NCBI GenBank assembly: GCA_947452135.1
Contig: CANGBT010000002.1
Location: forward strand, 3,586 to 67,585
DNA: 64,000 nt
Direction: 5' to 3'
Origin: Burkholderiales bacterium
Lineage (GTDB): Bacteria; Pseudomonadota; Gammaproteobacteria; Burkholderiales; Burkholderiaceae_C
Shown: one piece after another, positions 38,779 through 64,000 of the stretch
Layout of the letters: each line of letters begins with the position of its first letter
Position numbering within the stretch: the first letter of the stretch is position 1
Notes under the pieces: model-generated
What the model was told of the DNA's origin: nothing
The model's database searches: none
Seen by the model: only the letters and a program-made list of their open reading frames with translations
Made by a program: the position numbers and the translations under genes

Positions 38779-38791
38779 GCCGGTGACGGCG

Positions 38792-40919: not shown

Positions 40920-41020
40920 TTCGCTGAACGCGATTCAGAAAAAGCGTAACAACTGTCAGCGAATCACCGTCCACAAAGCGCCACGCTGCGCAGCTTCGGA
41001 CATGAGTTCGGTGACGATCC

Positions 41021-41052
41021 GGCCGACTTGTAAGCGCCGCTTACAAGTGGCC
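41021..41052. repeat. inverted repeat / strong hairpin (perfect 10+10 palindrome CTTGTAAGCG-C-CGCTTACAAG, extended by GGCC arms)
   Basis: Read directly at 41027-41047, with flanking GGCC(g)A / TGGCC pairing. The 9-mer CGACTTGTA recurs at 41188-41196. Confidence 0.6.
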
Positions 41053-41165
41053 GGCCGTGCGTTTTCGTGGCGGGTTTGCCGGGCGACACGCTCGGCACAG
41101 GGGCGCACCACGCCGGGCGCCGGGGCTGAAAAAAACCCGGCCAGACACATTTGCTCACACGGAAC

Positions 41166-41188
41166 GGCCACCCCCGGGGTGGCCTTTC
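41166..41188 (+). terminator. GC-rich hairpin with a short T tract (terminator-like)
   Basis: GGCCACCCC-c-GGGGTGGCC followed by TTTC. Confidence 0.35.
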
Positions 41189-41353
41189 GACTTGTATCAA
41201 GGGGGATCTCGATCGATGGGGTAATGGCCAGGACGGCTGCCCGGCACTGCATCTGCATCCAGCGGAAGTGCGATGGCCAGTCGGCAAGAACGCAGCGTCG
41301 GGCGACACGCCTGAGCGCAGCAACCAGCCATCTGCCTATCCGATCGAGAACCC

Positions 41354-42451: not shown

Positions 42452-42493
42452 GCGTCCCCTACACGTTTACTTCCCTGATCAACTGGAATTGAC

Positions 42494-43825
42494 ATGAAAC
42501 GAATCATTTATTCAATGGCATTTTCCGTGTGCCTGGCGCCTTTGTGCGCCGAAGCGGCAAACCAGTATGTACGCCCAGGCGCCACCGGACTCAATAATGG
42601 ATCCGACTGGACCAATGCATACTCAAAAATGCCCACAACACTCACCCGCGGAGATACTTATTATCTCGCCGGTGGAAGTTATGGCAGCTACACGTTTTCA
42701 ACCCCCGTCTCCGGCACGACGCCCATCACCGTGAGAAAAGCCACCGTGGCCGACCACGGTGTGGCCACCGGCTGGTCGGACGCCTACGGCACCACCCAGG
42801 CGTTGTTCAACGGGCTGGCGTTCAAGACCAGCTATCACGTGTTCGACGGCGTGACGGGCGGCGGGCCGGGCAACTGGGAAACCGGCTTCGGTTTCAAGGT
42901 GCAAGCCACGTATCACACCATCGACTTCCCGGCCGTGTTGTCGGACATCACGCTGCGCCACGTCGACATCCAGGGTGGCGGCCGCGCGGAAACCTCGGAC
43001 ACCGACTTGCTGTACCTGGTCAACAAGTTCTCCAACATCACGGTGTCGTACTGCTTCTTGCACGACACCTCGCGCACCATGATCCTGACCTGGCCGGCCA
43101 GTGGCAGCGGCATGTTGCTCGAGTATTCGAAATTCGCGCGAAACGGCAACGCCGAACACCGCGAAGCGTGGTCAGCCGGTGCCGACAGCAATGTGACCGT
43201 TCGACATAACCTGTTCGAAGATATTCTTGGAACCGGGGTGATTGCCATTGTCAACAGCAAGGGCGTGGCTAATAACTGGGATGTCTACGGTAATATTTTC
43301 TATCACACCGGAAAATACATGGACGGCATCATCAATACCGGCGTCCTGTTCAACCGTTATGACGCGGGCGGTTCACCCATCGCGGTGCAGGCCAGCAACT
43401 GGCACGTCTACAACAACGTGGTGGCCAACATCCGCAACGGCTCGTTCACGGCGGCATTCACCTCGCAGAACTCGGTGAACTACGTCGCCGAGAACAACAT
43501 CTGGTTCAACAACCAGTCCACCGACGTGGGTGCCAACGGGGTCACGACCGCCGACTACAACTGGTTCGCCGGCAACGGCGGCAGCGGAGCGCGCGGCCCT
43601 CACGACATCAACGGCACTGCCTCGCCGTTTGTGGATGCGCAGCCGTGGATCTCGGGCAACTGGGCCTTGAAAGCCCCAATCGGCGGCCTCGCGCTGGCTG
43701 CGCCCTACAACATCGACATGAACGGCACGGTCCGTGGTGCCGATGGCGTGTTCGACCGTGGCGTGCTCGAGTTCTCCAGCCAGGCGGCGGCCGTGCAGGC
43801 GCCCAGCAGCTTGCAGGTCAAGTGA
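42494..43825 (+). CDS. secreted right-handed parallel beta-helix protein (polysaccharide lyase/hydrolase/epimerase-like)
   Basis: 443 aa. Signal peptide MKRIIYSMAFSVCLAPLCAEA. Repeated N/H/G-rich rungs (NITVSYCFLHD, NVTVRHNLFED, WDVYGNIFYH, WHVYNNVV, ENNIWFNN). Several 60-nt lines I hand-counted have only 42-48 % GC. Confidence 0.7.
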   Translation: MKRIIYSMAFSVCLAPLCAEAANQYVRPGATGLNNGSDWTNAYSKMPTTLTRGDTYYLAGGSYGSYTFSTPVSGTTPITVRKATVADHGVATGWSDAYGTTQALFNGLAFKTSYHVFDGVTGGGPGNWETGFGFKVQATYHTIDFPAVLSDITLRHVDIQGGGRAETSDTDLLYLVNKFSNITVSYCFLHDTSRTMILTWPASGSGMLLEYSKFARNGNAEHREAWSAGADSNVTVRHNLFEDILGTGVIAIVNSKGVANNWDVYGNIFYHTGKYMDGIINTGVLFNRYDAGGSPIAVQASNWHVYNNVVANIRNGSFTAAFTSQNSVNYVAENNIWFNNQSTDVGANGVTTADYNWFAGNGGSGARGPHDINGTASPFVDAQPWISGNWALKAPIGGLALAAPYNIDMNGTVRGADGVFDRGVLEFSSQAAAVQAPSSLQVK

Positions 43826-49483: not shown

Positions 49484-50684
49484 TGAGCAGCCTCCCCACG
49501 ATGTCCAGGTAATCGGCCTTTTTCTCGGCCCAGCTGTTGCGCCCGGCGAAGGCCTGCGCGCGTGCGCTGATCTCGGCGCTGCGCCGCCGGTTGGCGTAGG
49601 CGTCGAGCAGCACGCGCGCCAGATCGTCGGAGTCGCCGGCACGGAAAAAACGCACCAGCGAGTCGTCGAAATAGAAGCGGTCCACGCGCGTGTCGGCCAC
49701 CACCAGCGGCACGCCCAGCGACATGAACTCGAGCGTCTTGGTGCTGAACGCATCGCCGCCGAACGAGTCGTTGCGCTTGGGCACCACGCCCAGATCGGCG
49801 TTGGCCATCACCGCGGCGATCTCGCGGATGGGCAACGGCGGCATCAGCTTCACCCGCGCACCCAGCCGCAAATCGGCCACCAGCCGCTGCAGTTGCGGCT
49901 TGGCCGGACCTTCGCCGTAGATGTGCAGCTCCATCGAGGGTGCCTGCTCGCACACCTTCGAAAAAGCCGCGATGGCGATGTCCAGCCCCTGGTGCCAGTT
50001 CAGCGTGCCGGGGTAGATCACCACGAAGCGCCCGTCGTCAGCTCGCTCGCGCAAGCGCGGGTCGAAGATGCCCGCGTCGGGGTAATTGATCATCGCGGAG
50101 CACTTGTCGGCGCGGCTCGAACGCTCGGTGATCCGCTCCAGCCACAGGTCGTTGGCCACGATCACGTGGTCGGCAAACGCGGCCGACCAGCGCTCGGCGC
50201 GCTTGAGCGCGGCAAACACCAGCGACTGCTCGCTCACCTTGAACTTGGCGGCATAGAACTCGGGAACGATGTCGTGGATGTCGAGCACCACCTTGGCACC
50301 GAGCAGCTTGGGCACAAAAGCGGCGAACACCTCGAAATCAGGCACCGAGTGCACGTGGATCAGGTCGTAGGGCTGCTCCACATGCCGGCGCGTGATCTCG
50401 ATCATCGAGTTGACGAAAAACCGCAGCACCCGCAGCAGGTAAGCGCCCTTGCCGCGCTCGTTCTTCTCGCGGCCCTGGATGCGCAGCACCCGCACGCCGT
50501 TCATCAACTCCTCGGCTGGCAGCCCTTCGCGGCGCAGCACGATGGCGTCGACACGCGCACCCTCGTTGGCCAGCGCCTCGGCGTAGCGGATCACCCGGCC
50601 ATCGTTCTCGTAGAAGGTGTAGGCCAGCATGCAGGCATGGATGGGCATCGGCATGGTGCTCACGAAGGCGCTGGTGGAACTCAT
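49476..50684 (-). CDS. GT-B glycosyltransferase (family 4/1-like)
   Basis: 402 aa from ATG 50682-50684 (IHVHSVPDF..., VIYPGTLNWHQGLD, the EX7E-like region FSTKTLEFMSLGVPLVV). Confidence 0.8.
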   Translation of the reverse strand: MSSTSAFVSTMPMPIHACMLAYTFYENDGRVIRYAEALANEGARVDAIVLRREGLPAEELMNGVRVLRIQGREKNERGKGAYLLRVLRFFVNSMIEITRRHVEQPYDLIHVHSVPDFEVFAAFVPKLLGAKVVLDIHDIVPEFYAAKFKVSEQSLVFAALKRAERWSAAFADHVIVANDLWLERITERSSRADKCSAMINYPDAGIFDPRLRERADDGRFVVIYPGTLNWHQGLDIAIAAFSKVCEQAPSMELHIYGEGPAKPQLQRLVADLRLGARVKLMPPLPIREIAAVMANADLGVVPKRNDSFGGDAFSTKTLEFMSLGVPLVVADTRVDRFYFDDSLVRFFRAGDSDDLARVLLDAYANRRRSAEISARAQAFAGRNSWAEKKADYLDIVGRLLNG

Positions 50685-52066
50685 GACGCAGACCGCTCCA
50701 TCGGTGGTGTGGCGCGCTGCGGCTGGAGCACCACGCCGCGCGCGTAGCCGCGCGAGACGATGCGCCGCGCGGTGCCCACCAGCGAGCGCAGCTGGTGCCC
50801 CAGCGGGATGCGCAACCAGTTGGCCAGCAGCGAAAAGCCGCTGTAGCGCGGCGCCGCGATGCCCGCCGTGCGCAGCGTGAGCAGCCGGCCCCAGATCGCG
50901 CCGCGCTTGCGCTGCAGCTCGCGCTGCGACATCAAAAGCACCTCGGGCGAGACCGCCTCGAGCGACAGCACACCGGCGGCCACCGCCGCGCGCACCAGGC
51001 GCCGGCCGGTCTCGGTGCGCACCAGCAGCAGCGAGCGGCCGGCTTCGCCTTCGGCGATCTCGCGGTACCAGGGGTCGCCGCACGACAGGTCGGCGAACTC
51101 GCTGGTGCCGTCGGGACACAGGTGGCAGCGAAACGGCCGGTACTTCTGCAAGAAGCCCCAGGCCTCGGCGTAGGTGGCCAGATCGCGCCAGCCGCCCTCG
51201 CCGGTCTGGCCTTCGTCACCCTTCATGCGCACCGAAAACAGCCCCGGCCAGCCGCGCCCGCGGTAGCGGATCTCGGCCACCTGATCGGCGTCGATGCCGT
51301 GCTGCGCCAGCAGATCGAGCGTGCCTTGCGTGCTGGGCGTGCCGGCGCAGAAGATGCCAATCGCCAGGCCCACGTTGGCATCGAGCGCGGGGCGCAGCTT
51401 TTGCGCCTTGCGCAGGCCCTGCACGTCGCACGGCTTGCCGATGAACACGCACGGCCCGCCGGCGTCCTCGATGGCTTGCAGCTGATCGCACGGCGAGGCC
51501 GGCGAGTACTTCGATCCGGTGGCCGCCAGCAATTCGGCCGGTGTGCGACTGAAGCGGCTGGCGTTGAGGTAGCGCACCTCGTCATCCGCACCCACGTGCA
51601 CCACGCCGCGCATGCCCTGCTGCTGCACGGCAAACAGCGCCAGCGCGCTGGCCAGTCCGCCCGACGATCCGGCCAGACGCAGTGCGCCGTCGGTGGCAAA
51701 GCCTTCCCACACCTCGAGCACCGGGCCCCAGCTCTCGCGCAGCGCGCCCAGCGTGTCGGCCATCGCCCAACCCGGCTCATGGTCGATGCCGAGTCCCGGG
51801 CACACGGTGACGCAGTCGTTGCAGCTGGCGCAGGCGTCGGTGGCGGTGGCGGTGACAGCGGCGATGCGGGCGGTCGCACCACCCGCGATGGCACCTGTCG
51901 TGACGGCCGGGGTCTGCGCATCGACATCCACGAACACCGGGCGCAGCCCGTGCGCCACGAAGTCGTGCATCTCCAGCCGGCCGTCGCTGCAGGCGTAGAC
52001 GCACGCACCGCAGCCGTTGCACAGGTTCGAGCGCGCCACGTCGGTGGCGTTGCGAATCGCGATCAT
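50681..52066 (-). CDS. 2x[4Fe-4S] ferredoxin domain fused to an FrhB/FdhB (coenzyme F420 hydrogenase beta)-like domain
   Basis: 461 aa. Cys motifs are CNGCGACVYAC and CASCNDCVTVCPG. FrhB-like C-terminal segments are SSGGLASAL..., IGKPCDVQGL, GIFCAGTPS and RCHLCPD. Confidence 0.75.
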   Translation of the reverse strand: MIAIRNATDVARSNLCNGCGACVYACSDGRLEMHDFVAHGLRPVFVDVDAQTPAVTTGAIAGGATARIAAVTATATDACASCNDCVTVCPGLGIDHEPGWAMADTLGALRESWGPVLEVWEGFATDGALRLAGSSGGLASALALFAVQQQGMRGVVHVGADDEVRYLNASRFSRTPAELLAATGSKYSPASPCDQLQAIEDAGGPCVFIGKPCDVQGLRKAQKLRPALDANVGLAIGIFCAGTPSTQGTLDLLAQHGIDADQVAEIRYRGRGWPGLFSVRMKGDEGQTGEGGWRDLATYAEAWGFLQKYRPFRCHLCPDGTSEFADLSCGDPWYREIAEGEAGRSLLLVRTETGRRLVRAAVAAGVLSLEAVSPEVLLMSQRELQRKRGAIWGRLLTLRTAGIAAPRYSGFSLLANWLRIPLGHQLRSLVGTARRIVSRGYARGVVLQPQRATPPMERSAS

Positions 52067-53379
52067 GCGAACGCCCCCGCCGGCCTGGCCGCCACCGGTG
52101 TCAGTGCCACCGGCGCCAGCACATCGAGCGCCTGGCGCTTGACGCCCACCATGGTGCGGGCCAGCTGCGCACGGAGGATCTCACGCTGCGTGAAGGCGGC
52201 ATCAACCATGCGCACGATGGGCTCGATCGCCATGCTGCGCGGATCGGCCACCCACTGCCCGGCGCCCACGCTGGCCAGCACGCCGGCGAACTTCTGGCTG
52301 TAGGCGATGCCCACCGCAGGCACCGCCTGCGACAGCGCCGCGATGCACGCGTGCATGCGCGAGCCCACGAACAGGTCGCACTGGCCGATCACGTACTTGA
52401 TCTCGGCCTGATCGAGCGGCGCGGTGACCCGGGACAGCCGCCCCGGATAGCGCGCGGCCCACTTGTCGTAAAGCGCGTCGATGGCAATGGTGTCGCTCTC
52501 GGCGGCGCTGCCAAACACATGCGGCACCAGCAGCACGTTGGCGCCACGCGTTTCGATCAGCAGCGCGAGCACGCGCTCGATGAGTTCAGGGTAGTCGCAC
52601 TTCAGCGCGAAGGCGTTGTTGCCGCCGTAGCCGCCGATGTGGAGCAGGCCGCTCACGTTGAGCCCCACCAGCGGGCGCGGCCGGTTCGCGCGGTCCTCGT
52701 CGGGCAGCGCCAGCCCGGCGGGCGGGCGCGGCTCGAGCAAAAAACCCATGTCGTAGCCGAACACCACCTGGTGGCGTGAGGCGTCCAGGCCCAGCGCCGC
52801 AACCGCCTCACGCACGCCACCCACCTCGCGGCAGTACGACAGCTGCGAGCGCTTGACGATGTGGGCCGCGACCCAGCGCGCCAGCCGCGAGCGCAGCGGA
52901 CCGATGGTCTGCGGCAGCAGCACCAGCGGACGGTTCAGCAGCAGCACCAGCCACTGCGGCAGCACCATGTAGAAAAACCGCCCCATCCCGTAGATGTCGC
53001 TGAAGCTGTCGCCGCCCGACACCGCCACCGCCATGTCGGCTCGGGCCAGCTGCTCGAGCCAGGGGTTGCCCGCCAGGATGCGATCGCGCCGTTCGGGGCC
53101 GACCCAGCGCAGCAGCGCGGCGACCAGCAGCAAGCGCACGATGTTGTTGGGCAGCCAGGGCTTCCACGAGAAGCGCAGGTTCACCAGCGGGATGTCGACC
53201 ACCTCGCCACCCACGGTGACGCGGCTGGTGGTGGCCTCGTGGCCGTAGTCGACCAGCCGGATGTCGCAGCCGGGGAAGCGGTGGCGCAGGATGGTCAGCG
53301 CGCCCATGGCCAGCGCGCCAATGCCGCGGTTGTCGCTGTCCAGCGTGGCGCCCAGCAACAGCACCCGGGTCGGTTTCAT
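52063..53379 (-). CDS. polysaccharide pyruvyl transferase family protein
   Basis: 438 aa from ATG 53377-53379 (LLLGATLDSDNRGIGALAMG, VSGGDSFSDIYG, LFVGSRMHACIAAL). The N-terminal extension of tracked ORF 52063..54354 is rejected. Confidence 0.8.
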   Translation of the reverse strand: MKPTRVLLLGATLDSDNRGIGALAMGALTILRHRFPGCDIRLVDYGHEATTSRVTVGGEVVDIPLVNLRFSWKPWLPNNIVRLLLVAALLRWVGPERRDRILAGNPWLEQLARADMAVAVSGGDSFSDIYGMGRFFYMVLPQWLVLLLNRPLVLLPQTIGPLRSRLARWVAAHIVKRSQLSYCREVGGVREAVAALGLDASRHQVVFGYDMGFLLEPRPPAGLALPDEDRANRPRPLVGLNVSGLLHIGGYGGNNAFALKCDYPELIERVLALLIETRGANVLLVPHVFGSAAESDTIAIDALYDKWAARYPGRLSRVTAPLDQAEIKYVIGQCDLFVGSRMHACIAALSQAVPAVGIAYSQKFAGVLASVGAGQWVADPRSMAIEPIVRMVDAAFTQREILRAQLARTMVGVKRQALDVLAPVALTPVAARPAGAFA

Positions 53380-53399
53380 GGTGGCACCTCGTGAGGTTT

Positions 53400-54755
53400 T
53401 CAGTTGAACGTGCGGTTGGCCAGCGCCACCGAGGCACCGCGCGGCACCGCGCCGGTCCAGCTGGCGTGATCGGACTCGGCCTCGCGCGCGGCGGGCTGTG
53501 TGGCCGTGTCGACGGCCATGGCGGCGGTGGCCGCCAGCGTCAGGTAGAGCGCCACGAAGGACTGATCGAAATAAGACACCGACATGAACGAGACCGCATG
53601 CGCAAACAGCGAGGCTCCCAGCGCCCAGGCGAACCAGCCGCGCGGGTCTTGCGTACTGGTGCCGGCCTGCTCGAGCGTGCGGCCCACGCGGCGAAACGCG
53701 ATGACCAGGATCAACGCGAACAGCCCCATCAGCAGCACGCCGCCCACCACGCCCATGTGCAGGTATTCGTTGGTGATGTCGACGTGGGTCTTGTCGAGCG
53801 CGATCGGCATCCAGTGCGCGGTCACATCGGTGCCGCCCAGCCACCATTCGTTGATGTGCTCGAAGGCCGACTCGATCAGCCGCGCGCGGTACCAGCCGGT
53901 GCTGCCGCCGGCCAGGTCGATGCGCGCGAGCAGGTAGTACACCGGCGCGCTCATGGCCGCCGACAACGCCAGCAGCCCGGCCAACACCGACCAGCGCACC
54001 GCGCTCAGGTGCTGGCGCACCGGCCACAGCGCCAGCGCGGCCGCACCGGCCAGACCGCCAAGCACCGGCCCGCTCGATGCCGACGCCAGGATCATCACCA
54101 CGCACGCCGCCAGACCCACCAGTGCGATGCGGCGGTGCGAGGGCCACAGCGCGGCGGCCAGCGGCAGCCACACCGCGCCCACCGTGCCGGCCAGGATGGC
54201 GTGCGCGAACGGTCCTTGCGCGCGCAGCCGCCCGAAGCGCATCTGCGGCACGTCGATGGTGTCGCCAAACACCGAGTACAGGTTGTGCGCGCCGAACTGC
54301 TCGATCGTCATCTCGAGGGCCACCGGCACCATCAGCAGCACCGCGATGGCGCACAGCCGCCGGGCGTCATCGAGCGTGGGACACAGCACGCGCAGCACGA
54401 AGTAGCACGCGCACGCGTTGAACGCCATGCCGCTCTGGAACTTCAGCGCGGCCGCCACGTCGTCGTGAAAGATGGCAGAAAACACCGCCCACACGGCCCA
54501 CACCAGCATCGCCGCATCGAGCGCGTGCAACTCGCCGCTCAGCCCCTCGCGCCGCACCACCAGCCGCGCCAGCGCGGCCACCAGCAGCAGCCGGATCACG
54601 TACACGTTGAACGGCCCGATCACCACGCCCAGCCCGAACGGCATGTGCAGCGCACCGGCCAGCAGCGGCAACGCCGCCCAGCGCCGCGGCAGCATGAACG
54701 TCAGCAAGACCGCCACAGCCACGAACAGCATGCCGGCCGGGTTGAGCTCGCCCAT
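53400..54755 (-). CDS. O-antigen ligase/polymerase-like polytopic membrane protein (exosortase-locus O-glycosylation-ligase type)
   Basis: 451 aa from ATG 54753-54755. About 10-12 TM segments and a Wzy_C-like loop (RAQGPFAHAILAGTVGAV). Confidence 0.7.
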   Translation of the reverse strand: MGELNPAGMLFVAVAVLLTFMLPRRWAALPLLAGALHMPFGLGVVIGPFNVYVIRLLLVAALARLVVRREGLSGELHALDAAMLVWAVWAVFSAIFHDDVAAALKFQSGMAFNACACYFVLRVLCPTLDDARRLCAIAVLLMVPVALEMTIEQFGAHNLYSVFGDTIDVPQMRFGRLRAQGPFAHAILAGTVGAVWLPLAAALWPSHRRIALVGLAACVVMILASASSGPVLGGLAGAAALALWPVRQHLSAVRWSVLAGLLALSAAMSAPVYYLLARIDLAGGSTGWYRARLIESAFEHINEWWLGGTDVTAHWMPIALDKTHVDITNEYLHMGVVGGVLLMGLFALILVIAFRRVGRTLEQAGTSTQDPRGWFAWALGASLFAHAVSFMSVSYFDQSFVALYLTLAATAAMAVDTATQPAAREAESDHASWTGAVPRGASVALANRTFN

Positions 54756-56185
54756 CACACGCTCCTTGCTGCCGCCAGGCCCGACACGCGCGGACGCGCC
54801 ACCACCGCGTAGTCGCCCGCCCACAGGCCGCCCAGCAGTCCCAGCGTGGCGCGGTGGTAACGGCGCCAGCGGCCCGACACCTGCGGCTCGAGCTGCGTCA
54901 TCGCATAGCCGGCGCCCTCCAGCCAGCGGCGCACCAGACCCGGCGAGGTGATGTGGATGCCGCTGCGCGCGGCGTCACCCAGATGCTCGAGGTTGGGCGC
55001 ACGACGGAAGCGCCGCCAGCGCACCGAGGCGTGCTCGAGGTTCGGAAAGCTCGCGATCGCCAGACCGTCGGGCCGCAGCAGTTGCCGGTAGCTGCTCAGC
55101 AGCGCCACCGGGTCATCGACCAGATGGATCAGCCCCGAGATCAGCAGCGCGTCGAACTGCTCGCCGGCCAGCGCAGCGGGCGCGGCCTGCAAGCCGCACG
55201 GCAGCACGCGCACGCCGTGATCGGCGGCCAGCCGGCCGATCACCCGGTCGAGCGGCACGGCGGTGACCGCGATGCCGCGCTCGAGCAGCGCCTGCTCGGT
55301 GCGACCCCAGCCGCAACCGATCGACAGCACGCTCTTGGCCGAGGCGGGCAGCAGCGCGATCAGGTCGTCGCGGCACGGCTCGTAGTACGACTTGATCCAG
55401 CGCGCGCTGGGCAGCCGCGGCTCGACGCGCACCGCGCCGCTCGCCTCGGGCTGGCCGGGCTCGGTTTCCATCAGCGCGGCGAGCTGCGGCGCGAGCAGCT
55501 GCGCCGAGATGCCGGTGCGCCCGATGTAGCGGTTGGTCAGGTGCTGGCAGGTGAAGCGCGGCAGCTGCGAAATGCACACCAGCTTGCGAAAGCCGCACTG
55601 CGTGTACGGGTCGGTGGCCGCCGACACCAGCAAGTCGTACTTGCCTTCGTGCGGCGGCACGTTGAAGCCGCCCGAGGCGATGGCGCGGCGCAGCTGCGAG
55701 CGCGTGAGCAAGTAGCACGCGCCGTGCTCGTTGGTGAAGTGGGCGAACGTCTCGCCGCCGCGCCAGCGCACCGAGTTGACGTCCCAGTGGTAGTGGTTGT
55801 GGATGGTCGAGTAGTACAGCGTGCCGTCGGGCCCGCGCTCCGAACGCAGGAAGCCGGCGATCTCGTCGGGCTCGAGCACCGAGCTGGCCCACAGGAACGC
55901 CTCGATGTGGTCCTGCGTGATCAGCGTGTCGTCTTCCGAGTAGATGAACAGGTCGTGCTGCTCCAGCCGCTCGGCAAAGACGCTCTTGTGAGCGAACGGC
56001 AGCGACCACGGGTTGCCGGTGGGTGCGCCCACCAGCACTTCCACATCGGGGCCCAGATCGCGCGGCTCGTTGGACACCACCACCACGTGCACGTCGTACG
56101 GCATCGCGGCGTACTCGTCGAGCAGCTGCTGCAAATAGGCGTCGTTGCGATGGCCGTGGCTGGCGATGGCGACAAGGATCTTCAT
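54755..56185 (-). CDS. two-domain protein: N-terminal GT-A-like domain plus C-terminal class I SAM methyltransferase
   Basis: 476 aa. N-terminal half: MKILVAIASHG...VVVVSNEP...FIYSEDDTL (DxD-like). C-terminal half: VLSIGCGWGRTE...FDALLISGLIHLV. Confidence 0.7.
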   Translation of the reverse strand: MKILVAIASHGHRNDAYLQQLLDEYAAMPYDVHVVVVSNEPRDLGPDVEVLVGAPTGNPWSLPFAHKSVFAERLEQHDLFIYSEDDTLITQDHIEAFLWASSVLEPDEIAGFLRSERGPDGTLYYSTIHNHYHWDVNSVRWRGGETFAHFTNEHGACYLLTRSQLRRAIASGGFNVPPHEGKYDLLVSAATDPYTQCGFRKLVCISQLPRFTCQHLTNRYIGRTGISAQLLAPQLAALMETEPGQPEASGAVRVEPRLPSARWIKSYYEPCRDDLIALLPASAKSVLSIGCGWGRTEQALLERGIAVTAVPLDRVIGRLAADHGVRVLPCGLQAAPAALAGEQFDALLISGLIHLVDDPVALLSSYRQLLRPDGLAIASFPNLEHASVRWRRFRRAPNLEHLGDAARSGIHITSPGLVRRWLEGAGYAMTQLEPQVSGRWRRYHRATLGLLGGLWAGDYAVVARPRVSGLAAARSV

Positions 56186-57918
56186 GCGCGGTCCTGTGGA
56201 TGGGCGGGTGGCGGGTCGCTGCGGTCAAGGCGCCGCTTGAAGCGGCGCGCCCAGCCGTCGAGCGGCGGCGGCAGGCAGGTCAGCACGTTGGTCTTGAAGC
56301 CCAGTGCGCCGAGCTGCACCGCCAGCCGCACGCGCGAGGCGTACGGCAGGGGCGTGAGGCAGTGGCGCACCAGGCGCGCGCTGCGGTGGGGGTCGGTCAC
56401 CGAGCCGAACAGCCGCGCCAGCGCACCGTCGAGGCTGGTGGTCTGCGCCACGTCGCCTTGCTCGCCCACGCAGCCGCGCTCGGGCGTGGCGTCGAGCTGC
56501 GCGTACACGGCAGCCAGCGCACTGCGCCAGCCGTCGCCGCCGTGCAACTCGTCGATGCGCCGGCGCGCCAGCTCGCCACGCGATTCACGCAGCGCGGCGT
56601 CGTCGATCAGGCGCTCGAGGCACACCTGATAAGCCGCCGGCACGCTGGCCATTTCCATCGTCTCGTCGATGCCCGGCGCGCCCGGGCCGAGCAGCCGCAT
56701 GTCCTCGTCGAGGCCGCGGTAGCCCAGCAGCGCCAGACCGTGGCAGCCGGCTTCGAGCAGCGAGGTGATCGACGAGAACGGCACCGAGTCGAGGTACACG
56801 TCGGCTGCGGCAAACAGCACGTCGTTGTCCCAGCGCCGGCCCAGTGCCAGGATGCGCCCGTCGCACGCCAGGCTCGCGGCATGCCAGTCGCCGTGGTCCG
56901 ACGGGCCCACCGCCATGAAGTGCACATGGGGCCGGCTGGCCAGCACCGGCGTCACCAGATCGAGCAGCCCCACCTGACCCGGCGCGCTGTACTTGAAGGG
57001 CGACGCGATGGTCAGCAGCAGCACGCCGTCGGGGTCGAGCCCGAGTCGGCGCTTGGCCTCGCGCCGGCCCATGGCCAGCGCCGGTGGCGGTGTGGGTATC
57101 GGTATGGGCAGCAGCATGCGTCGCTCCACATCCAGCCCGCGCCGCTGGGCCAGGAAGGCATCGTTCTGGCTGCGCAGGTGGGCGATGCCGTGGGCCACGC
57201 CGGCACCCACCCAGAAGGTGTGATCCGAGTGATTGACCAGCAGCACGCGCGCCGAGTCGCAGCCACTGGCCAGCGCCAGCATGGGCACGATGTCGTACGG
57301 GTACAGGTGCAGCACCACCACATCGGCCTGCTGGCACAGCGCGCGCAGCTGGCGCGCCTGCGCCAGCGGCTCGGTGACCGGCGCGCCCAGCGTGTGCACC
57401 GCACCGCCCGACGAGTGCACCGCGCGGGTGAGCGCGCCCGGAACCTCGTAGGTGCCGGCGACTTCCTGCTGGCTGGTCAGCGCCACCGAATGGCAGCTGT
57501 CGCCGTCCAGTTCCATCCAGCGCCAGGCGTAGCGGCTGTCGCCGCCGATCGGCTTGGCATAGGTCAGCACGTGCAGCACCTGGCGGCGCTCGCCTCGCAG
57601 CGCAGGGGGCACCGCCGCGTCGGGTGCCGGCATGCGCCGGCCGATCTCGATGAGCAGCCGCTCCAGCCGCGGCGAGCCGAACAGCCCCACCGTGGCCGGA
57701 AACGCCTCGTTGGTGGCCAGCTTGGCCAGCGCGGCGGCGGCCGGCAGGTCGCCCGCCAGCAGCCGGGCTTCGGCCAGATCGAGCACGCCGCAAAAGCGCT
57801 GGTGCGCCTGCGCGGTCGGCCCGGCATGGGGCGGCACCAACGGCACCGTCGCGGGGACGGCGGTGCGCACGACGGGCTCGGTGGCGGGTTGCCACAGCGG
57901 GGTGGACAGGTCGCTCAT
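56182..57918 (-). CDS. divergent GT-B-like protein of unknown specificity
   Basis: 578 aa from ATG 57916-57918 (RQVLHVLTYAKPIGGDSRY..., LLTIASPFKY, YLDSVPFSSITSLLEAGCHGLALLG). ATGA overlaps at both ends. Confidence 0.55.
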   Translation of the reverse strand: MSDLSTPLWQPATEPVVRTAVPATVPLVPPHAGPTAQAHQRFCGVLDLAEARLLAGDLPAAAALAKLATNEAFPATVGLFGSPRLERLLIEIGRRMPAPDAAVPPALRGERRQVLHVLTYAKPIGGDSRYAWRWMELDGDSCHSVALTSQQEVAGTYEVPGALTRAVHSSGGAVHTLGAPVTEPLAQARQLRALCQQADVVVLHLYPYDIVPMLALASGCDSARVLLVNHSDHTFWVGAGVAHGIAHLRSQNDAFLAQRRGLDVERRMLLPIPIPTPPPALAMGRREAKRRLGLDPDGVLLLTIASPFKYSAPGQVGLLDLVTPVLASRPHVHFMAVGPSDHGDWHAASLACDGRILALGRRWDNDVLFAAADVYLDSVPFSSITSLLEAGCHGLALLGYRGLDEDMRLLGPGAPGIDETMEMASVPAAYQVCLERLIDDAALRESRGELARRRIDELHGGDGWRSALAAVYAQLDATPERGCVGEQGDVAQTTSLDGALARLFGSVTDPHRSARLVRHCLTPLPYASRVRLAVQLGALGFKTNVLTCLPPPLDGWARRFKRRLDRSDPPPAHPQDRA

Positions 57919-59492
57919 GGGGGTCCTTGTGTGTGCATGCGGAGCGCGCCGAGCAAGCGGCGCAGTGAGGCCGGCAGGTGCTGCGGCGACGCGAGCCGCA
58001 GCAGCACGCGCAGGGAATAGACCGTGCTGGCCAGCGTGATCAGCGCGCCGGCAGCCAGCGCCCAGGCCACGGGCCACCACTCGAAGGCCGCAAACACCGC
58101 GGCCACCGACACGCCGAACACGCCCACGCTGGCGGCGGTGTCGCCCGACCAGCGAAAGCCGCTGAGCGACCTCACGATCGGATACAGCATCAGCGCGTGA
58201 AACACGTACGAGCCGAAGAACGCCATGCCCGCGCCGCGGTGCCCGTAGCGGCCCACCAGAACCCAGGCCAGGCCGACGCTCACCAGCCCCCAGGCCAGCT
58301 CGGTGATGAAGAACAGCCGCTGGTCGCCGCGCGCCACGATGATGAAACCCATCGGCCAGGTGACCACCCGCAGCGTCATGCCCAGGCACACCCAGCGCAG
58401 CGTTTCGGCCGCCTCGCCGAAAGCCGGGCTGTAGAACACCGCAAGCACCAGCGAGGCCAGCGTGAGCGTGGCCGCCATGCCGGGGCCGGCCAGCAGCAAG
58501 CTGACCTGTGCCTGCTCGTTGACCACCTGGTTGCTTCGCGCGTTGTCGTGGATCAGCGCGACCAGCCGGGGGTAGAAGTCCGCACCCATCGCCTGCAGCA
58601 CGAAGCCCACATACAGACCACCCAGCGTCCAGGCGGCCTGGTAGTAGCCGGCCGCTTCGAGCCCGTCGTGGCGCAGCACGATCAGCCGCACCACATAGGC
58701 CGAGGCCATCACGATCAGCCCGCTGGCCATGAAGGCCAGACCCAGACCGAGCAGCGCGCTCGACTCGCGCCGCACCTCGGCCCAGCGCAGCGTCACCGCA
58801 GCCAGCGGCACACGCCGCGCGTACCACCACGACACGAGCGCCGCACCGGCAGCCATCGCCACCAGCGACGGCACCACGCCGGCCTCGCCCCACAGCGCGA
58901 CCAGCGCGATGCCGGCCAGCGAGCCGAGCAGCGCGCCGAAAAATCCCACGGCGGCGAAATCCCCGATGCGCCGCAGGCCCTGGATCAGCGCGCCCTGGCT
59001 GTCCGAGACGATGCGAAAGAACACCGCCGCGCCCAGCAGCGCCACCGACGGTGCGCGCTGCGCGTCGCCAAAGGTCAGCGTGGCCAGCGGGCTCGACGCG
59101 GCGGCCAGCAGCCCCGCGCCCAGCAGCGCGAGCAGCAGCGACACGCGGCGCAGCACGCCGGCGGTGAAGGCAATGCGCTGCGCATCGCCGGTGCCCGCGG
59201 CCGCGGCGATCTGCCGCACCCCGCTGCTGTTGATGCCCAGCTGCGCCACGCTGCGCACCAGATCGACGATCGAGCCGTACAAGCCCAGCAGGCCGAAGCC
59301 GGCCGGCCCGAGCAGCATCGCCAGCACCTTGGTGCGCACCAGCCCGACCCCGATGTTGAGCGCCGACGCCCCGCCGATCAGCGCGGTGGCCTTGAGGATG
59401 CCGCGGTAGCCGGCGCTGGCCGAGCCCGCGCTCGGCACCGACGGCTCCACAGCCACCGCGCGTGACGCGGTGAGGTCGGGAACGGCGCTCAC
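57915..59492 (-). CDS. Wzx-type oligosaccharide flippase (PST/MOP family)
   Basis: About 525 aa polytopic protein (ILKATALIGGASALNIGVGLVRTKVLAMLLGPAGFGLLGLY). GTG start at 59490-59492, 10 nt after the upstream stop. Confidence 0.8.
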   Translation of the reverse strand: MSAVPDLTASRAVAVEPSVPSAGSASAGYRGILKATALIGGASALNIGVGLVRTKVLAMLLGPAGFGLLGLYGSIVDLVRSVAQLGINSSGVRQIAAAAGTGDAQRIAFTAGVLRRVSLLLALLGAGLLAAASSPLATLTFGDAQRAPSVALLGAAVFFRIVSDSQGALIQGLRRIGDFAAVGFFGALLGSLAGIALVALWGEAGVVPSLVAMAAGAALVSWWYARRVPLAAVTLRWAEVRRESSALLGLGLAFMASGLIVMASAYVVRLIVLRHDGLEAAGYYQAAWTLGGLYVGFVLQAMGADFYPRLVALIHDNARSNQVVNEQAQVSLLLAGPGMAATLTLASLVLAVFYSPAFGEAAETLRWVCLGMTLRVVTWPMGFIIVARGDQRLFFITELAWGLVSVGLAWVLVGRYGHRGAGMAFFGSYVFHALMLYPIVRSLSGFRWSGDTAASVGVFGVSVAAVFAAFEWWPVAWALAAGALITLASTVYSLRVLLRLASPQHLPASLRRLLGALRMHTQGPP

Positions 59493-59502
59493 GGCGTGCC
59501 GA

Positions 59503-60675
59503 TCAGGCTGCGGCCGCCGACGGCGACACACCGGCCGCACGGCTGCACGCATCGATCAGCGCGCGCGCGATGTGCTGCTGCTCGGCCAGCGTCAGGCCGG
59601 GGTACAGCGGCAGCAGCACGCGGCGATCCTGCGCGCGCTCGGATTGGGTCAGCGCGTGGCGGTGCGGCAGATCGGCGCAGGCCACCTCGCGGTGCGAGCA
59701 CATGATCCCGCGCCGCGTGCTCACGCCGGCTTCGAGCATCGACTGCATCACCGCGCGCTGGTCGCTGTGCTCAGGCAGGCCCACGCTGAAGCTTTGCCAG
59801 TTGGAGCGCGCCCACGGCGGCTCCACCGGCAGATCGAGGCCGTGGTTGCCGGCCAGCAGCTCGTGGTACTGGCTGGCGAGTTGCCGGCGCTGGGGCACGA
59901 TGTCCGGCAGGCGCTTGAGTTGCTCGCGACCGACCGCCGCCTGGATGTCGGTCATGCGGTAGTTGAAGCCGACCTCGGGGTACGACTCGAAGATCACCTG
60001 GCTCGATCCGTGGCGCACGGTGTCGGGCACGCTCATGGCGTGCTGGCGCAGCAGGCGGAAGCGCTGGTCCCACTCGGCGTGGCGCGTGGTGATCATGCCG
60101 CCGTCGCCGGTGCTGATGACCTTGCGCGGATGGAACGAGAAGCACGCCACATCGCCGCGCGGTGCGCCGACCTTTTCCCACTCGCCGTTCCAGCGCACCT
60201 CGCTGCCGATGGCGCACGCCGCGTCCTCGATCACCGGCAACGAGTGCCGGCGCGCGATCGGCAGGATGTGCCGCAGATCGCACGGCATGCCGATCTGGTG
60301 CACGCACAGGATGGCGCGGGTGCGCGCGGTGATGGCCGGCTCGATCTGCGTGGCATCCAGGTTGAAGGTGACCGGATCGACATCGACGAACACCGGCACC
60401 GCGCCCAGATAGCGAATGCTGTTGGCCGTGGCGATGTACGAGTGGCTCACGGTGATCACCTCGTCGAGCGGCTTCACGCCGGCGGCGATCAGCGCCAGGT
60501 GCAGCGCGGTGGTGCAGTTGGACACCGCCGCGGCATGCGGCGCGCCCACGTAGTCCGCGAACTCGCGTTCGAAGGCAGCGACCTCGGGGCCCTGCGTGAT
60601 CCAGCCGCTGCGGATCACGCGGCCGGCGGCCTCGGCCTCGGCATCGCCCATCACGGGTTTGGCGCTCGGGATCAT
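59503..60675 (-). CDS. DegT/DnrJ/EryC1/StrS-family sugar aminotransferase
   Basis: 390 aa from ATG 60673-60675 (GWITQGPEVAAFE, AVSNCTTALHLAL, FSFHPRKVISTGDGGM). Confidence 0.85.
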   Translation of the reverse strand: MIPSAKPVMGDAEAEAAGRVIRSGWITQGPEVAAFEREFADYVGAPHAAAVSNCTTALHLALIAAGVKPLDEVITVSHSYIATANSIRYLGAVPVFVDVDPVTFNLDATQIEPAITARTRAILCVHQIGMPCDLRHILPIARRHSLPVIEDAACAIGSEVRWNGEWEKVGAPRGDVACFSFHPRKVISTGDGGMITTRHAEWDQRFRLLRQHAMSVPDTVRHGSSQVIFESYPEVGFNYRMTDIQAAVGREQLKRLPDIVPQRRQLASQYHELLAGNHGLDLPVEPPWARSNWQSFSVGLPEHSDQRAVMQSMLEAGVSTRRGIMCSHREVACADLPHRHALTQSERAQDRRVLLPLYPGLTLAEQQHIARALIDACSRAAGVSPSAAAA

Positions 60676-61652
60676 GCGCACGCCACCTCGGCGCGGTTGG
60701 CTTGCCACCACGCCACCAGATGCCGCAGGCCTTCGTGCAGGCGCACGCCGGATCGAAAGCCCAGCAGTCGCTCGGCCTTTTCGGTGGAAGCCAGCCGGCG
60801 CGGCACCGGGTTGACGCTGCGCTCGGGGCCGTGCTCGGGCACCAGGCCCTGCGCGTCCATCACCGTGAGCAAGGCGCTGGCCAGTTCGGCCAGCGACGTC
60901 TCGGTGCCGCTGGCCACGTTGAAGACTTCGTCCTCGCAATCGGCGCGCAGCGCGGCCACGTTGGCGCGCGCCACGTCGTCGATGTAGATGAAGTCCATGG
61001 TCTGCGAGCCGTCGCCCAGGATCAGCGGCGGCTGGCCGTTGGCGATGCGCTCCATCCAGCGGATCAGCACTTCGGTGTACTTGCCGTGGATGTCCATGCG
61101 CGGGCCGTACACATTGAAGTAGCGCATGGCCACGTAGGGCAGCCCGTACATCGCGTGGTACGAGCGCAGCAGGCCCTCGAGCATCACCTTGCTCGCGCCG
61201 TACCAGGTGCGGTTGTTGTACGGATGGTGGTCTTCGCGGGTCGGAAAGCTGTCGGCCAGACCATAGATCGACGCCGACGACGCCGCCACCACGCGCCGCA
61301 CGCAGGCCAGCCGCGCGGCCTCGACCACGTTGAAGCTGCCGTCGCACATGACCTCGAGCGCCTCGCGCGGCTCGGCCGCACACGCGGTGATGCGCAGCGC
61401 GGCCAGGTGAATCACCGCGTCCATGCCGCGCGTGACGCGCTCGACGGCGGCCGCGTCGGCGATGTCGCCCTCGACGAAGCTCACGCGGGGGTCGGCCAGT
61501 GCTTTCTCGACGTTGGCCAGCCGGCCGCGCACGAGGTTGTCGAAGATCACGATCTTGCCGGGCGTGTGCTCGCGCAGCAGCAGATCGATGGTGGACGAGC
61601 CGATCAGGCCCGCGCCGCCGGTGACGAGAATCTTGGCGCCGTTGATGTTCAT
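60672..61652 (-). CDS. NAD-dependent nucleotide-sugar epimerase/dehydratase (SDR)
   Basis: 326 aa from ATG 61650-61652 (ILVTGGAGLIGS, YGASK, RYFNVYGPR). Confidence 0.85.
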   Translation of the reverse strand: MNINGAKILVTGGAGLIGSSTIDLLLREHTPGKIVIFDNLVRGRLANVEKALADPRVSFVEGDIADAAAVERVTRGMDAVIHLAALRITACAAEPREALEVMCDGSFNVVEAARLACVRRVVAASSASIYGLADSFPTREDHHPYNNRTWYGASKVMLEGLLRSYHAMYGLPYVAMRYFNVYGPRMDIHGKYTEVLIRWMERIANGQPPLILGDGSQTMDFIYIDDVARANVAALRADCEDEVFNVASGTETSLAELASALLTVMDAQGLVPEHGPERSVNPVPRRLASTEKAERLLGFRSGVRLHEGLRHLVAWWQANRAEVACA

Positions 61653-61708
61653 GCCGAGGGTTCCGGTTGCACTGGAAGGTTTGAAGAAGAAGTCACTGCC
61701 GTGCGCGG

Positions 61709-62914
61709 TCACACCGCGCCCTCGCAGTGCAAAACGACGCGCACCGTGCGCACGAGCAGGCTCAAGTCGGTGGCGAGCGAGCACTCGCGGATGTAGCGCA
61801 GGTCCATGCGCACCATGTCGTTGAAGCTCACGCGGCTGCGCCCTTCGACCTGCCACAACCCGGTGATGCCCGGCTTGAGCGCCAGGATGCGGCGCAGGTG
61901 CCACGGCTGGTACTGCGCCAGCTCGTAGGGCAGCGGCGGGCGCGGGCCGACCAGGCTCATGTCGCCCTTGAGCACGTTGAAAAACTGCGGCAGCTCGTCG
62001 AGGCTGGTGCGCCGGATGAAGCGCCCCACCCGGGTCACGCGCGGGTCGACCTTGATCTTGTAGAGCACCGGCTCGTCGTCGCGTGCCGGCGCCGGATCGG
62101 CCGCCGTCTTGATGAGCTTGGCCACGAACTCGCGGTGGATCGCGTCGTTGCCGCCGGTCACCATCGAGCGGAACTTGTAGAAGGTGAACGGCGCGCCGCC
62201 CTTGCCCACGCGGGTCTGCTTGAAGATGACCGGTCCGCGCGACCCCAGCACCACCGCCAGCGCCACGGCCAGCATCACCGGCGAGAACACGATCAGCGCG
62301 AACAGCGCGCCCACCACATCGAGCGTGCGCTTGAGCCGGTAGCCGACCACATGGTCGACCGTCTCGGTGGCGATGAAAGGCTCGAACACCTGCGGCACGT
62401 CGATGCCCTGCGCGAGGCTGTCGAACAGGTCGTCGGGGAAGGTGGCCACGCTCATCACGAACGGCAGGTCACCGGCCTCGCGGCTGACCTTGCGCAGCAG
62501 GCTGCGCGTGCCGGACTCGTCGGTGTCGGGACACAGCACGGCCACCTGACCGTCACCGGCGTGGCCCACCACATCGGTCTCGCGCTTGACGGCGCACAGC
62601 GACTCGAGCAGCCGGTCGATCTGCAACGCACCGCGCTGGTTGCGGTCGGCCAGATGAAACATGGCCAGCGACAGCGAGGTGCGGCTGCGCTCGGCGCGGC
62701 GCTTTTCGCGGTGCAGCTGGTGCAGGAATTCATCGAAGCCGATCACCTCGGCACCGGCTCGCTGCTCGGCCGCACGCACCGGCGCGGCAGACACGGCGGG
62801 CGGCGCCGTGGCACGGGCGCTCGGGGCTGTCGCCGGTTGTGTCTCGCGGGCGCTGCCGGATCCCGACAACACCGCTCCCGAAGCAGAAATCAATCGTTCT
62901 TCCATGGAGTCCAT
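61709..62914 (-). CDS. monotopic (PglC/WbaP-C-like) polyprenyl-phosphate sugar-phosphate transferase with N-terminal degenerate GGDEF-like domain
   Basis: C-terminal half: single re-entrant helix [25 protein letters not shown], then [42 protein letters not shown]-terminal half: [30 protein letters not shown]...[23 protein letters not shown]. The start is uncertain (ATG 62914 or 62905, or GTG 62980). Confidence 0.8.
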
Positions 62915-63034
62915 TGCAAGCGCTGGGCGCGTTTGTCGATTGAGAAGACTCAACCGGCAGGCAAGTGTTCTGGCGTCCACTGAACCTCAGGCCGGAAACA
63001 CCCCATTCACGAAACCCCACAAGAAGCTCACACC

Positions 63035-64000
63035 ATGACCCACGCCTTGCAGGACCAATTCGCGCAGCTGCGACGCTGGACACGGCTCGTGTCGAGGCGC
63101 CGCTGGCTGGTGCTCGGCGTGGCCGCCGTGACCGCCGTGGCCAGTGCTGCGGTGCTGGTCACGCTGCCCGACCGCTACCAGGCCAGCGCCCGCATCTATG
63201 TGGACACGCAAACGGTGCTCAAGCCGCTGATGGCCAACCTGGCCTACCAGCCCGACATCGACCAGCAAGTGGTCATGCTCGCTCGCACGCTGATCTCGCG
63301 GCCGAACATCGAGCGCCTGGTGCAGCGGCCCGAGCTGAACTTCGATGTGTCCGACCCGCGCGAGACCGAGCAGCTGGTGTCGGGGCTGATGGGGCAGATC
63401 CACATCACACCCACGCCGTCGGGCAACCTGTACGACATCACCTACCGCGGCAGCAGCCCCGAGGGCGCGCAGCGGCTGGTCGAGGCCACGCTGGACCTGT
63501 TCGTGCACGCGGGAGCCCACGCCAAGCAGATCGATTCGCAAGAGGCCGGCCGCTTCATCGAAGCGCAGATCCAGACCTACGGCGACAAGCTCGCCGAAGT
63601 CGAAGAGCGCCTGAAGGACTTCCGCATGCGCAACCTCGGCCTGGCCGGCGTGAGCAACCAGGACTACTTCGGCCGCATCTCGTCGCTCACCGAGCAGGTC
63701 AGCCGCCTCAACGCCGAGCTGTTCGCAGCGCAGCACACACGCGACGCCTACCGGCGCGAACTGGGCATCGAAGGCGCGCTCGCTTCGGGCGACACGCCAG
63801 CCGACAGCCTGGCCGCGCCCGGCGAGAGCGAACTGCGCGCACAGGATCAGCGCAAGCGGCTCGACGAGCTGCTGACCCGCTACACCGAAGAGCACCCCGA
63901 CGTGATCGCCACGCGGCACCTCATCGAGCAGCTCGATGCCGAAGCGAGCCAGCCGCAAGCGCTGCAGGTCAAGCGCGTCGTGCGTGTGGGCAGCGACACG
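63035..64000 (+). CDS. polysaccharide chain-length determinant (Wzz/PCP, PEP-CTERM/XrtA-locus type), 3' end beyond the window
   Basis: Not in the ORF track (no stop in the window). My own translation from ATG 63035 gives MTHALQDQFAQLRRWTRLVSRRRWLVLGVAAVTAVASAAVLVTLPDRYQASARIYVDTQTVLKPLM...TYGDKLAEVEERLKDFRMRN... (TM helix, then coiled-coil). Divergent from the priming transferase gene. Confidence 0.8.
   Translation, partial: MTHALQDQFAQLRRWTRLVSRRRWLVLGVAAVTAVASAAVLVTLPDRYQASARIYVDTQTVLKPLMANLAYQPDIDQQVVMLARTLISRPNIERLVQRPELNFDVSDPRETEQLVSGLMGQIHITPTPSGNLYDITYRGSSPEGAQRLVEATLDLFVHAGAHAKQIDSQEAGRFIEAQIQTYGDKLAEVEERLKDFRMRNLGLAGVSNQDYFGRISSLTEQVSRLNAELFAAQHTRDAYRRELGIEGALASGDTPADSLAAPGESELRAQDQRKRLDELLTRYTEEHPDVIATRHLIEQLDAEASQPQALQVKRVVRVGSDT

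Follow-up and report, generated by a model that had tools for sequence, protein, structure and literature searches.

The window analysed here, a 64,000-nucleotide stretch of contig CANGBT010000002.1 from a Burkholderiales bacterium, encodes a phosphoglycosyl transferase (PGT) that heads a run of exopolysaccharide (EPS) biosynthesis genes. The C-terminal half of this protein resembles PglC, a small monotopic PGT, and the N-terminal half was found to contain a truncated and degenerate GGDEF fold that has kept the RxxD motif of the inhibitory site (I-site) for cyclic di-GMP (c-di-GMP). From the conservation of this motif we propose, with moderate confidence, that the domain is a putative c-di-GMP receptor that would gate the committed step of EPS assembly.

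The longest open reading frame (ORF) for the gene, 61709..62980 on the minus strand, encodes 423 amino acids from a GTG start at 62980. The ATG at 62914 is the start in the public gene calls and in the 99% identical homolog P0001, and residue numbers are given for the resulting 401-residue form. Addition of 22 converts these to the numbering of the 423-residue ORF, in which R111, D114 and R76 are R133, D136 and R98.

The match of the C-terminal half to the Pfam family PF02397 (Bac_transf) covers profile positions 1-178 of 179, with a score of 217.9 bits (cut-off 27) and E = 9e-65, and the sequence carries the motifs KFRSM and DELPQ..N....G.MSLVGPRP. There is only one hydrophobic helix, which has a basic N-cap (K195-R196) followed by a break at FS211P212V. 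Among 115 close homologs, K195 is conserved in 100% and P212 in at least 90%, and the residues D306 and E307 are invariant. The AlphaFold2 (AF2) model of the whole protein was matched by Foldseek to PglC from Campylobacter (8g1n, E = 1e-12, 36% identity; 8e37, E ~1e-12) and to WbaP from Salmonella (8t53, E = 6e-11), the latter over ~210 columns that comprise the catalytic half only. Judged by sequence and predicted structure, the C-terminal half is a PglC-like small monotopic PGT with its catalytic features intact; by analogy with PglC, the membrane helix is expected to be re-entrant.

The N-terminal domain was more difficult to place. The window protein alone gave no match to PF00990 (GGDEF) in Pfam, and the sole Pfam match of its N-terminal domain was to GGDEF_2 at 14.8 bits, below the cut-off of 24.5 bits. 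A word-indexed protein search with this domain returned no match, and a phmmer search of it against the PDB gave WspR at a non-significant E of ~0.3-0.6, amid troponin C noise. These single-sequence searches were weak, and profiles and structure prediction were therefore needed. When residues ~49-195 were compared by phmmer with 1.84 billion representative sequences, 166 clusters were obtained at E ≤ 1e-3, and these reached canonical diguanylate cyclases: P0224 (E = 4.6e-6) and P0259 (E = 1.4e-4), which themselves match the Pfam GGDEF family with E = 6.5e-83 and 6.5e-70. An alignment of 73 mutually diverse domain copies of <45% identity (A2) includes 20 members that match PF00990, 7 that match GGDEF_2 and 2 that match PelD_GGDEF. 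The profile made from A2 was matched at E ≤ 0.01 to 28 distinct sequences in the PDB, which are exclusively GGDEF-domain proteins; the best of these were GcbC (5euh, 3e-12) and WspR (3e-10), and PleD was found at 2.7e-4. In the alignments of this profile to solved cyclases, GDGQV falls on GGEEF and a gap of 8 residues lies exactly at the segment D-x-D-x-FK..ND..GH.

The predicted structures lead to the same assignment. The mean predicted local distance difference test (pLDDT) score of the whole-protein model is 77 and its predicted template modelling (pTM) score is 0.58; within the domain the blockwise pLDDT is ~76-96, and a model of the domain alone has a pTM of 0.74. The order of secondary structure elements in the domain is alpha0-beta1-alpha-beta2-beta3-alpha3-beta4-alpha, and the model stops after beta4 and one helix, so that it lacks the final third of a canonical GGDEF domain. 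For the full-length model, every non-PGT structure among the top 50 Foldseek matches in the PDB has a GGDEF domain. For the domain-only model this is true of all of the top 50, with template modelling (TM) scores of 0.53-0.67 when normalised to the 147-residue query, of which ~24-30 residues are of low confidence. The closest solved structure is 6KHU, a "DGC protein" of 131 residues from Thermotoga maritima (TM 0.66 by query and 0.73 by target, 16% identity), which was also matched by the A2 profile with E = 1e-8 over nearly its full length. It is similarly short to the window domain, and it demonstrates that GGDEF-like folds of such size exist as stable units.

By sequence profiles and structure models together, residues 57-168 are confirmed as a truncated, degenerate GGDEF fold. 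The initial annotation, made by eye from the sequence, had proposed such a domain upstream of a PglC-like PGT and had noted the absence of the D-x-D...ND-x-x-GH segment; the profile, phmmer and Foldseek results bear out these assignments, and all of its interpretation that is accessible to computation was supported. It had also named PF02397 and PF00990 as the families to be compared, and the first was recovered; the second was not matched by the single sequence and appears only in the 20 relatives mentioned above.

Two other identities for this region have been considered. The alignments to the large-PGT models TIGR03025 and TIGR03023 extend upstream of the catalytic half, back to residue 76-79 of the 423-residue ORF, which might suggest a cytoplasmic domain of the WbaP/WcaJ type that is unrelated to GGDEF. 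However, the three scores obtained with this group of models (TIGR03022/03023/03025) are all below the curated NCBIfam cut-offs, at 286.5 vs 295.55, 239 vs 403 and 233 vs 411, and WbaP itself (8t53) aligns over the catalytic half alone, with the remaining Foldseek matches being GGDEF structures. The upstream region is therefore not a WbaP-type domain; the PDB profile search, which returned GGDEF chains exclusively, and the Foldseek searches with both models refute this identity, and we assign it almost no weight. The homology to GGDEF domains could also be taken to mean that the domain still works as a diguanylate cyclase and provides the EPS machinery with a local supply of c-di-GMP. This is contradicted by the deletion of the D-x-D metal site and of the FK..ND..GH segment for GTP, which are replaced by the 8-residue gap, by a signature that reads GDGQV and is variable among orthologs, and by the absent C-terminal third of the fold. 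With the segment for GTP and metal lost and the signature motif decayed, the remnant cannot make c-di-GMP; an active cyclase is refuted at the sequence level and is scarcely credible.

The GGDEF-like domain is maintained by selection. Ratios of nonsynonymous to synonymous substitution (dN/dS) were determined by the pairwise Nei-Gojobori method against three orthologs (L001-L003) that are 80-90% identical in the N-terminal domain. The values obtained were 0.19-0.38 for the GGDEF-like domain, 0.14-0.26 for the PGT half and 0.41-0.63 for the N-terminal tail. Purifying selection on the GGDEF-like domain is thus comparable to that on the enzyme half. The initial annotation was mistaken in stating that there is no in-frame start between RETD and the transferase helix: examples are found at 62567-62572 (GTG GTG) and 62453-62455 (ATG). 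The conclusion that had been drawn is unchanged, since conservation at the protein level and the dN/dS of 0.19-0.38 indicate that the domain is translated and constrained despite these downstream starts.

The most conserved positions of the domain are those of the I-site. The RETD motif is separated from GDGQV by five residues (VVGHA), and the coordinates, residues and spacing of both motifs were verified as first annotated. An RxxD motif five residues before the former GGDEF motif is the sequence criterion for receptors of the PelD and PopA type. Column conservation was determined from 283 domain copies, taken from all the proteins retrieved, of which 238 remained once redundancy had been removed at 80% identity. 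R111 and D114, at 98% each, are the two columns of lowest entropy in the domain, and both residues are invariant in the 115 closest homologs. In the alpha0 helix R76 is conserved at 95%, E70 at 94% and R73 at 91%, and further conserved columns are T131 (92%) and G135 (91%). The two residues that follow R111 are a strongly conserved E-T (64% and 82%). The former active-site motif has drifted: at positions 120-124 the preferred residues are G (46%), D (35%), D (35%) or G (25%), none, and I (48%). Position 142 is lysine in 64% and arginine in 16% of the copies, and lysine in at least 90% of the close homologs. By counting of positions, we take this to be the site of R390 of PleD, whose I-site consists of R359xxD362 and R390.

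When the profile is aligned to WspR, RETD coincides with R242-S-S-D245 and R76 with R198. In WspR, R242 and R198 bind an intercalated dimer of c-di-GMP, with R198 being contributed by a second GGDEF domain, and the R242A and R198A proteins were nucleotide-free on purification (De et al. 2008, PMC2270323). The alignments indicate that the I-site residues are the sole strongly conserved surface features of the remnant, and that it is kept under selection for a putative I-site made up of RxxD, R76 of alpha0 and the lysine or arginine at position 142 of alpha3.

The same module is found in other architectures. Two tandem copies precede the PGT in P0062, P0067, P0070, P0101 and P0110, and three copies do so in P0124 and P0215. 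The RxxD motif is present in every tandem copy inspected (P0062, P0124 and P0215), except for one copy of P0124 that has KxxD. In P0175 (532 residues), two copies are fused to a glycosyltransferase of the WecG/TagA/CpsF family (PF03808, E = 5e-58); the module is thus not restricted to PGTs, as would be expected of a portable regulatory module. A separate family of ~480-540 residues (P0204, P0209, P0189, P0261 and P0219) contains two GGDEF-like copies that retain R/K-x-x-D but lacks a PGT, and the N- and C-terminal flanks of these proteins are without a Pfam assignment.

A genome scan with the single protein identified 12 loci, of which 11 are from Burkholderiales or other Betaproteobacteria. 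A word-indexed search with the A2 profile returned 5 proteins and does not amount to a census of the fusion. The block Wzz / PGT-epimerase-DegT-Wzx recurs in the distant carriers L017 and L018, and this gene order is also seen in L013; the downstream gene order is listed for L011 and L007 as well. Among cultured organisms, divergent Wzz / PGT-epimerase genes are present in Rhizobacter sp. Root404 and the PGT-epimerase pair in Azohydromonas aeria. Short matches of 150-250 residues were considered as stand-alone versions of the domain but were discounted as evidence for them, since the one checked (P0282, from L018) proved to be a frameshift fragment of the fusion. On this long-read metagenome contig (6001-7241 and 8306-9102) the fusion gene is split into pieces of 234, 52 and 83 residues, and the DegT gene is also split. 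The other short stand-alone matches may likewise be artefacts of assembly or frameshift.

The fusion is poorly visible in the databases. In 115 of the 120 homologs listed the precomputed annotation is PF02397 only, and Pfam therefore misses the GGDEF-like domain in most members. A few of the two-copy homologs have precomputed matches to both PF00990 and PF02397, one JGI name mentions GGDEF, and most members are labelled simply "sugar transferase".

An explanation in which the remnant binds no nucleotide is that it serves as a module for protein-protein interaction or dimerisation, for example by docking to Wzz and its bacterial tyrosine kinase (BY-kinase), to an active diguanylate cyclase or to the glycosyltransferase that acts next; RxxD and the arginines would be retained as parts of an interface or of a salt-bridge network. 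EpsW and EpsZ are a known case in which a protein partner regulates an initiating PGT (PMC12802240). The heavy truncation of the domain would also fit such a role, the E/R/R motif of alpha0 is generic to GGDEF folds, and the tandem copies may be no more than repeats for interaction. We nevertheless consider this explanation unlikely: the two most conserved columns are ligand-contacting residues of the I-site while the rest of the surface drifts, and degenerate GGDEF domains that keep RxxD have, where tested, been found to be c-di-GMP receptors (PelD and PopA).

The pocket could also bind a different ligand, such as 3'3'-cGAMP, c-di-AMP, GTP, (p)ppGpp or a nucleotide sugar, and the PGT would in that case answer to this signal instead of c-di-GMP. 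The pocket would be rebuilt on a shortened scaffold, the conserved E-T after the arginine is unusual, and the scans of the window revealed no link between the locus and genes of c-di-GMP metabolism or sensing. However, RxxD with the alpha0 arginine is the c-di-GMP site in all of the matched solved GGDEF complexes (5euh, 3ign, 3bre/3i5b, 6zxm and 6tts), and to our knowledge no alternative ligand has been established for an RxxD I-site. A different ligand is accordingly improbable, although it deserves some weight.

For c-di-GMP as the ligand, the following mechanism can be proposed. In this reading the protein initiates the lipid-linked repeat unit of a Wzx/Wzy-dependent EPS. A domain that is N-terminal to the re-entrant helix is cytoplasmic in the PglC topology. 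There, c-di-GMP would probably bind as an intercalated dimer, contacting RxxD in one module and the alpha0 arginine in another. The latter module could belong to another subunit or, where a homolog has two or three tandem copies, to the same chain. We favour such a link between two modules through the c-di-GMP dimer because the I-site is bipartite and conserved in both of its parts (RxxD and the arginine of alpha0) and because the module occurs in tandem. Binding might then be relayed to the re-entrant helix by the short, flexible tether and change the activity or the oligomeric state of the PGT; cross-linking of the modules could alter either the oligomeric state or the access to the active site at the membrane interface. 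The committed step of EPS assembly would in this way track the cellular level of c-di-GMP. Activation at high c-di-GMP is most likely, by analogy with PelD, Alg44 and BcsA.

Several points weigh against a c-di-GMP receptor. The E-x2-R-x2-R helix is also conserved in many ordinary GGDEF domains, and part of its conservation may therefore be structural; the homologs were recruited through their resemblance to the query, and the apparent conservation of the motifs is thereby inflated. The domain is without the C-terminal third of the GGDEF fold, and we know of no validated receptor so short. How the two domains are placed with respect to each other is uncertain (pTM of 0.58 for the whole protein and pLDDT of ~50 for the linker). 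No gene for a diguanylate cyclase, EAL or PilZ protein was found in the ORFs scanned (12.9-64 kb of the window), and a scan of the whole window (1-64000) at the Rfam gathering thresholds gave 0 matches to any RNA family, c-di-GMP riboswitches included. Whether c-di-GMP would activate or inhibit is judged purely by analogy.

With these points in mind, we put forward a broader proposal more tentatively, as possible rather than probable. A portable "mini-GGDEF" I-site module may place the assembly of lipid-linked glycans in Wzx/Wzy pathways under the direct post-translational control of c-di-GMP at the committed step. The intercalated dimer would cross-link modules of different subunits or of tandem copies, and a small PGT that is otherwise monomeric would thereby be switched on or off.

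The coordinates of the gene, its parts and the nearest neighbours are collected in Table 1.

Table 1. Features of the PGT gene and of the adjoining genes (window positions; strand in parentheses)
Feature	Position	Basis or remark
Whole PGT gene	61709..62914 (-)	401 residues plus stop; ATG at 62914
N-terminal tail, residues 1-56	62747..62914 (-)	Poorly conserved; predicted disordered; pLDDT <50; no consensus in alignment A1
Truncated degenerate GGDEF-fold domain, residues 57-168	62411..62746 (-)	Profile vs PDB, AF2, Foldseek, phmmer, dN/dS
Helix alpha0 motif E70-x2-R73-x2-R76	62687..62707 (-)	Conservation; profile alignment to WspR
RETD (R111-D114), RxxD I-site motif	62573..62584 (-)	Aligned with RxxD of WspR, GcbC and others
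GDGQV, residues 120-124, decayed GG(D/E)EF position	62543..62557 (-)	Aligned to GGEEF in profile search
K142, helix alpha3	62489..62491 (-)	18 residues past the last residue of the GGDEF position
Flexible linker, residues 169-194 (~26 residues)	62333..62410 (-)	pLDDT ~50; variable in A1 and A2
Predicted re-entrant membrane helix of the PGT, residues 195-224	62243..62332 (-)	pLDDT >90; Foldseek match to PglC
S211-P212 break within the re-entrant helix	62279-62284 (-)	Ser-Pro
PGT catalytic domain	61712..62242 (-)	KFRSM; Bac_transf E = 9e-65; Foldseek
Asp-Glu dyad D306-E307 in DELPQ	61994-61999 (-)	Invariant in 115 homologs
Epimerase/dehydratase (NAD-dependent), DegT-type aminotransferase, Wzx-type flippase	57915..61712 (-)	Pfam; L013 context
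Wzz chain-length determinant gene (polysaccharide co-polymerase), divergent, cut by the window end	63035..64000 (+)	Codon-bias call; L013 context

The genetic context is that of a Wzx/Wzy-type EPS cluster. The PGT heads a co-oriented run that continues with the epimerase/dehydratase, the DegT-type aminotransferase, the Wzx-type flippase, a 578-residue protein, a methyltransferase and a 451-residue protein, and then with genes for a pyruvyl transferase, an FrhB-like protein, a family 4 glycosyltransferase (GT4), a polysaccharide deacetylase, a GT2 enzyme, an AsnB-type amidotransferase and another GT2 enzyme. The 578-residue ORF after the flippase is possibly the Wzy polymerase. A Wza-type export protein is encoded at 40260-40919. 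Beyond Wzz, the full contig contains genes for a BY-kinase-like ATPase and then a UDP-sugar dehydrogenase.

In the public gene calls, the TGA stop of the PGT overlaps the GTG start of the epimerase/dehydratase by 4 nucleotides (61709-61712), which suggests translational coupling; an alternative ATG start for the latter gene is found at 61650-61652. A scan of the divergent intergenic region for sigma-70 promoters found none, and two terminator-like matches within the 3' end of the PGT gene are at chance level. An FrhB/FdhB-like iron-sulfur protein adjoins the polysaccharide pyruvyl transferase (50681-52066 and 52063-54354, minus strand), and this proximity suggests that the EPS is pyruvylated. 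Codon-bias-supported ORFs of the EPS region that have no Pfam match (E ≤ 1e-5 or 1e-4) are located at 36745-38778, 38729-40186, 41002-42492 and 42494-43825 on the plus strand and at ~56182-57900 and ~52063-53400 on the minus strand. The segment from 12.9 to 36.6 kb is occupied by unrelated housekeeping genes (acetyl-CoA synthetase, MoaA/MoeA, phosphoenolpyruvate synthase and its regulator, a TRAP transporter and PmbA). In four otherwise divergent carriers the Wzz side shows a conserved association with an adjoining giant secreted-type protein of ~1200-2240 residues with Big_5/DUF4082/CopC-like/Big_7 repeats (L013 1-4880, L016 1-2850, L017 1-5729 and L018 1-365), at a place that is past the window end at 64000.

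The enzyme described here has the re-entrant helix with a Ser-Pro break, the Asp-Glu dyad and the fold in common with PglC-type PGTs; PglC is without an N-terminal extension, whereas the window protein has ~190 extra residues before the helix. The large PGTs of the WbaP/WcaJ type have four transmembrane helices and a cytoplasmic domain at the N-terminus, in contrast to the one hydrophobic helix found here. The neighbouring epimerase/dehydratase and DegT genes resemble the supply of amino-deoxy sugars by enzymes of the PglF/PglE type. The spacing of five residues from RxxD to the GGDEF position is the same as in active cyclases such as WspR (R242xxD245 with R198), where the I-site serves for product inhibition of the same domain. 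In the window domain there is no cyclase activity left to inhibit, and the output would therefore have to be the fused PGT.

The post-translational regulation of Wzx/Wzy pathways is incompletely understood, according to a 2025 study (PMC12802240). Direct post-translational control of EPS by c-di-GMP has been documented for cellulose, alginate, Pel and poly-N-acetylglucosamine, and a 2021 review of the control of EPS by c-di-GMP deals exclusively with synthase-dependent systems (PMC8461298). In a full-text literature search whose scope excluded O'Toole et al. 2021, no publication was found to connect a PGT or "sugar transferase" with GGDEF or c-di-GMP binding, and a 2024 paper on the annotation of monotopic PGTs makes no mention of GGDEF, receiver or c-di-GMP. 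The initial annotation was likewise not aware of a description of the fusion; the GGDEF-PGT architecture is already implicit in the databases. If the proposal is correct, this would be the first c-di-GMP-gated phosphoglycosyl transferase, and direct gating by c-di-GMP would not be confined to synthase-dependent polysaccharides. With a built-in I-site receptor in the PGT, c-di-GMP would act at the point where undecaprenyl phosphate, which is scarce, becomes committed to a single polymer.

Close parallels are also found in other known systems. PelD and PopA are c-di-GMP receptors with degenerate GGDEF domains. PelD from Pseudomonas aeruginosa shares with the window protein a catalytically dead GGDEF domain with RxxD, a location at the inner membrane and a role in an exopolysaccharide machine. 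It is a separate protein of a synthase-dependent pathway, with four transmembrane helices, a GAF domain and a full-length GGDEF domain, and it recruits PelF (PMC8461298). In contrast, the window domain is ~110 residues long and has neither a GAF domain nor the final third of the fold; its fusion partner, in cis, is the PGT that initiates a pathway of the Wzx/Wzy type. The window domain does not match PelD_GGDEF (PF16963), although the two relatives in A2 do, with a best E of 3e-6. In Myxococcus, the receiver protein EpsW acts in trans on EpsZ, a large dimeric PGT (PMC12802240), and fusions of receiver domains to small monotopic PGTs are attributed there to O'Toole et al. 2021. Like the regulation proposed here, these cases have a signalling domain that acts post-translationally on the first committed step; those domains are phosphorylation-dependent receivers, whereas that of the window protein is an I-site domain of the second-messenger type.

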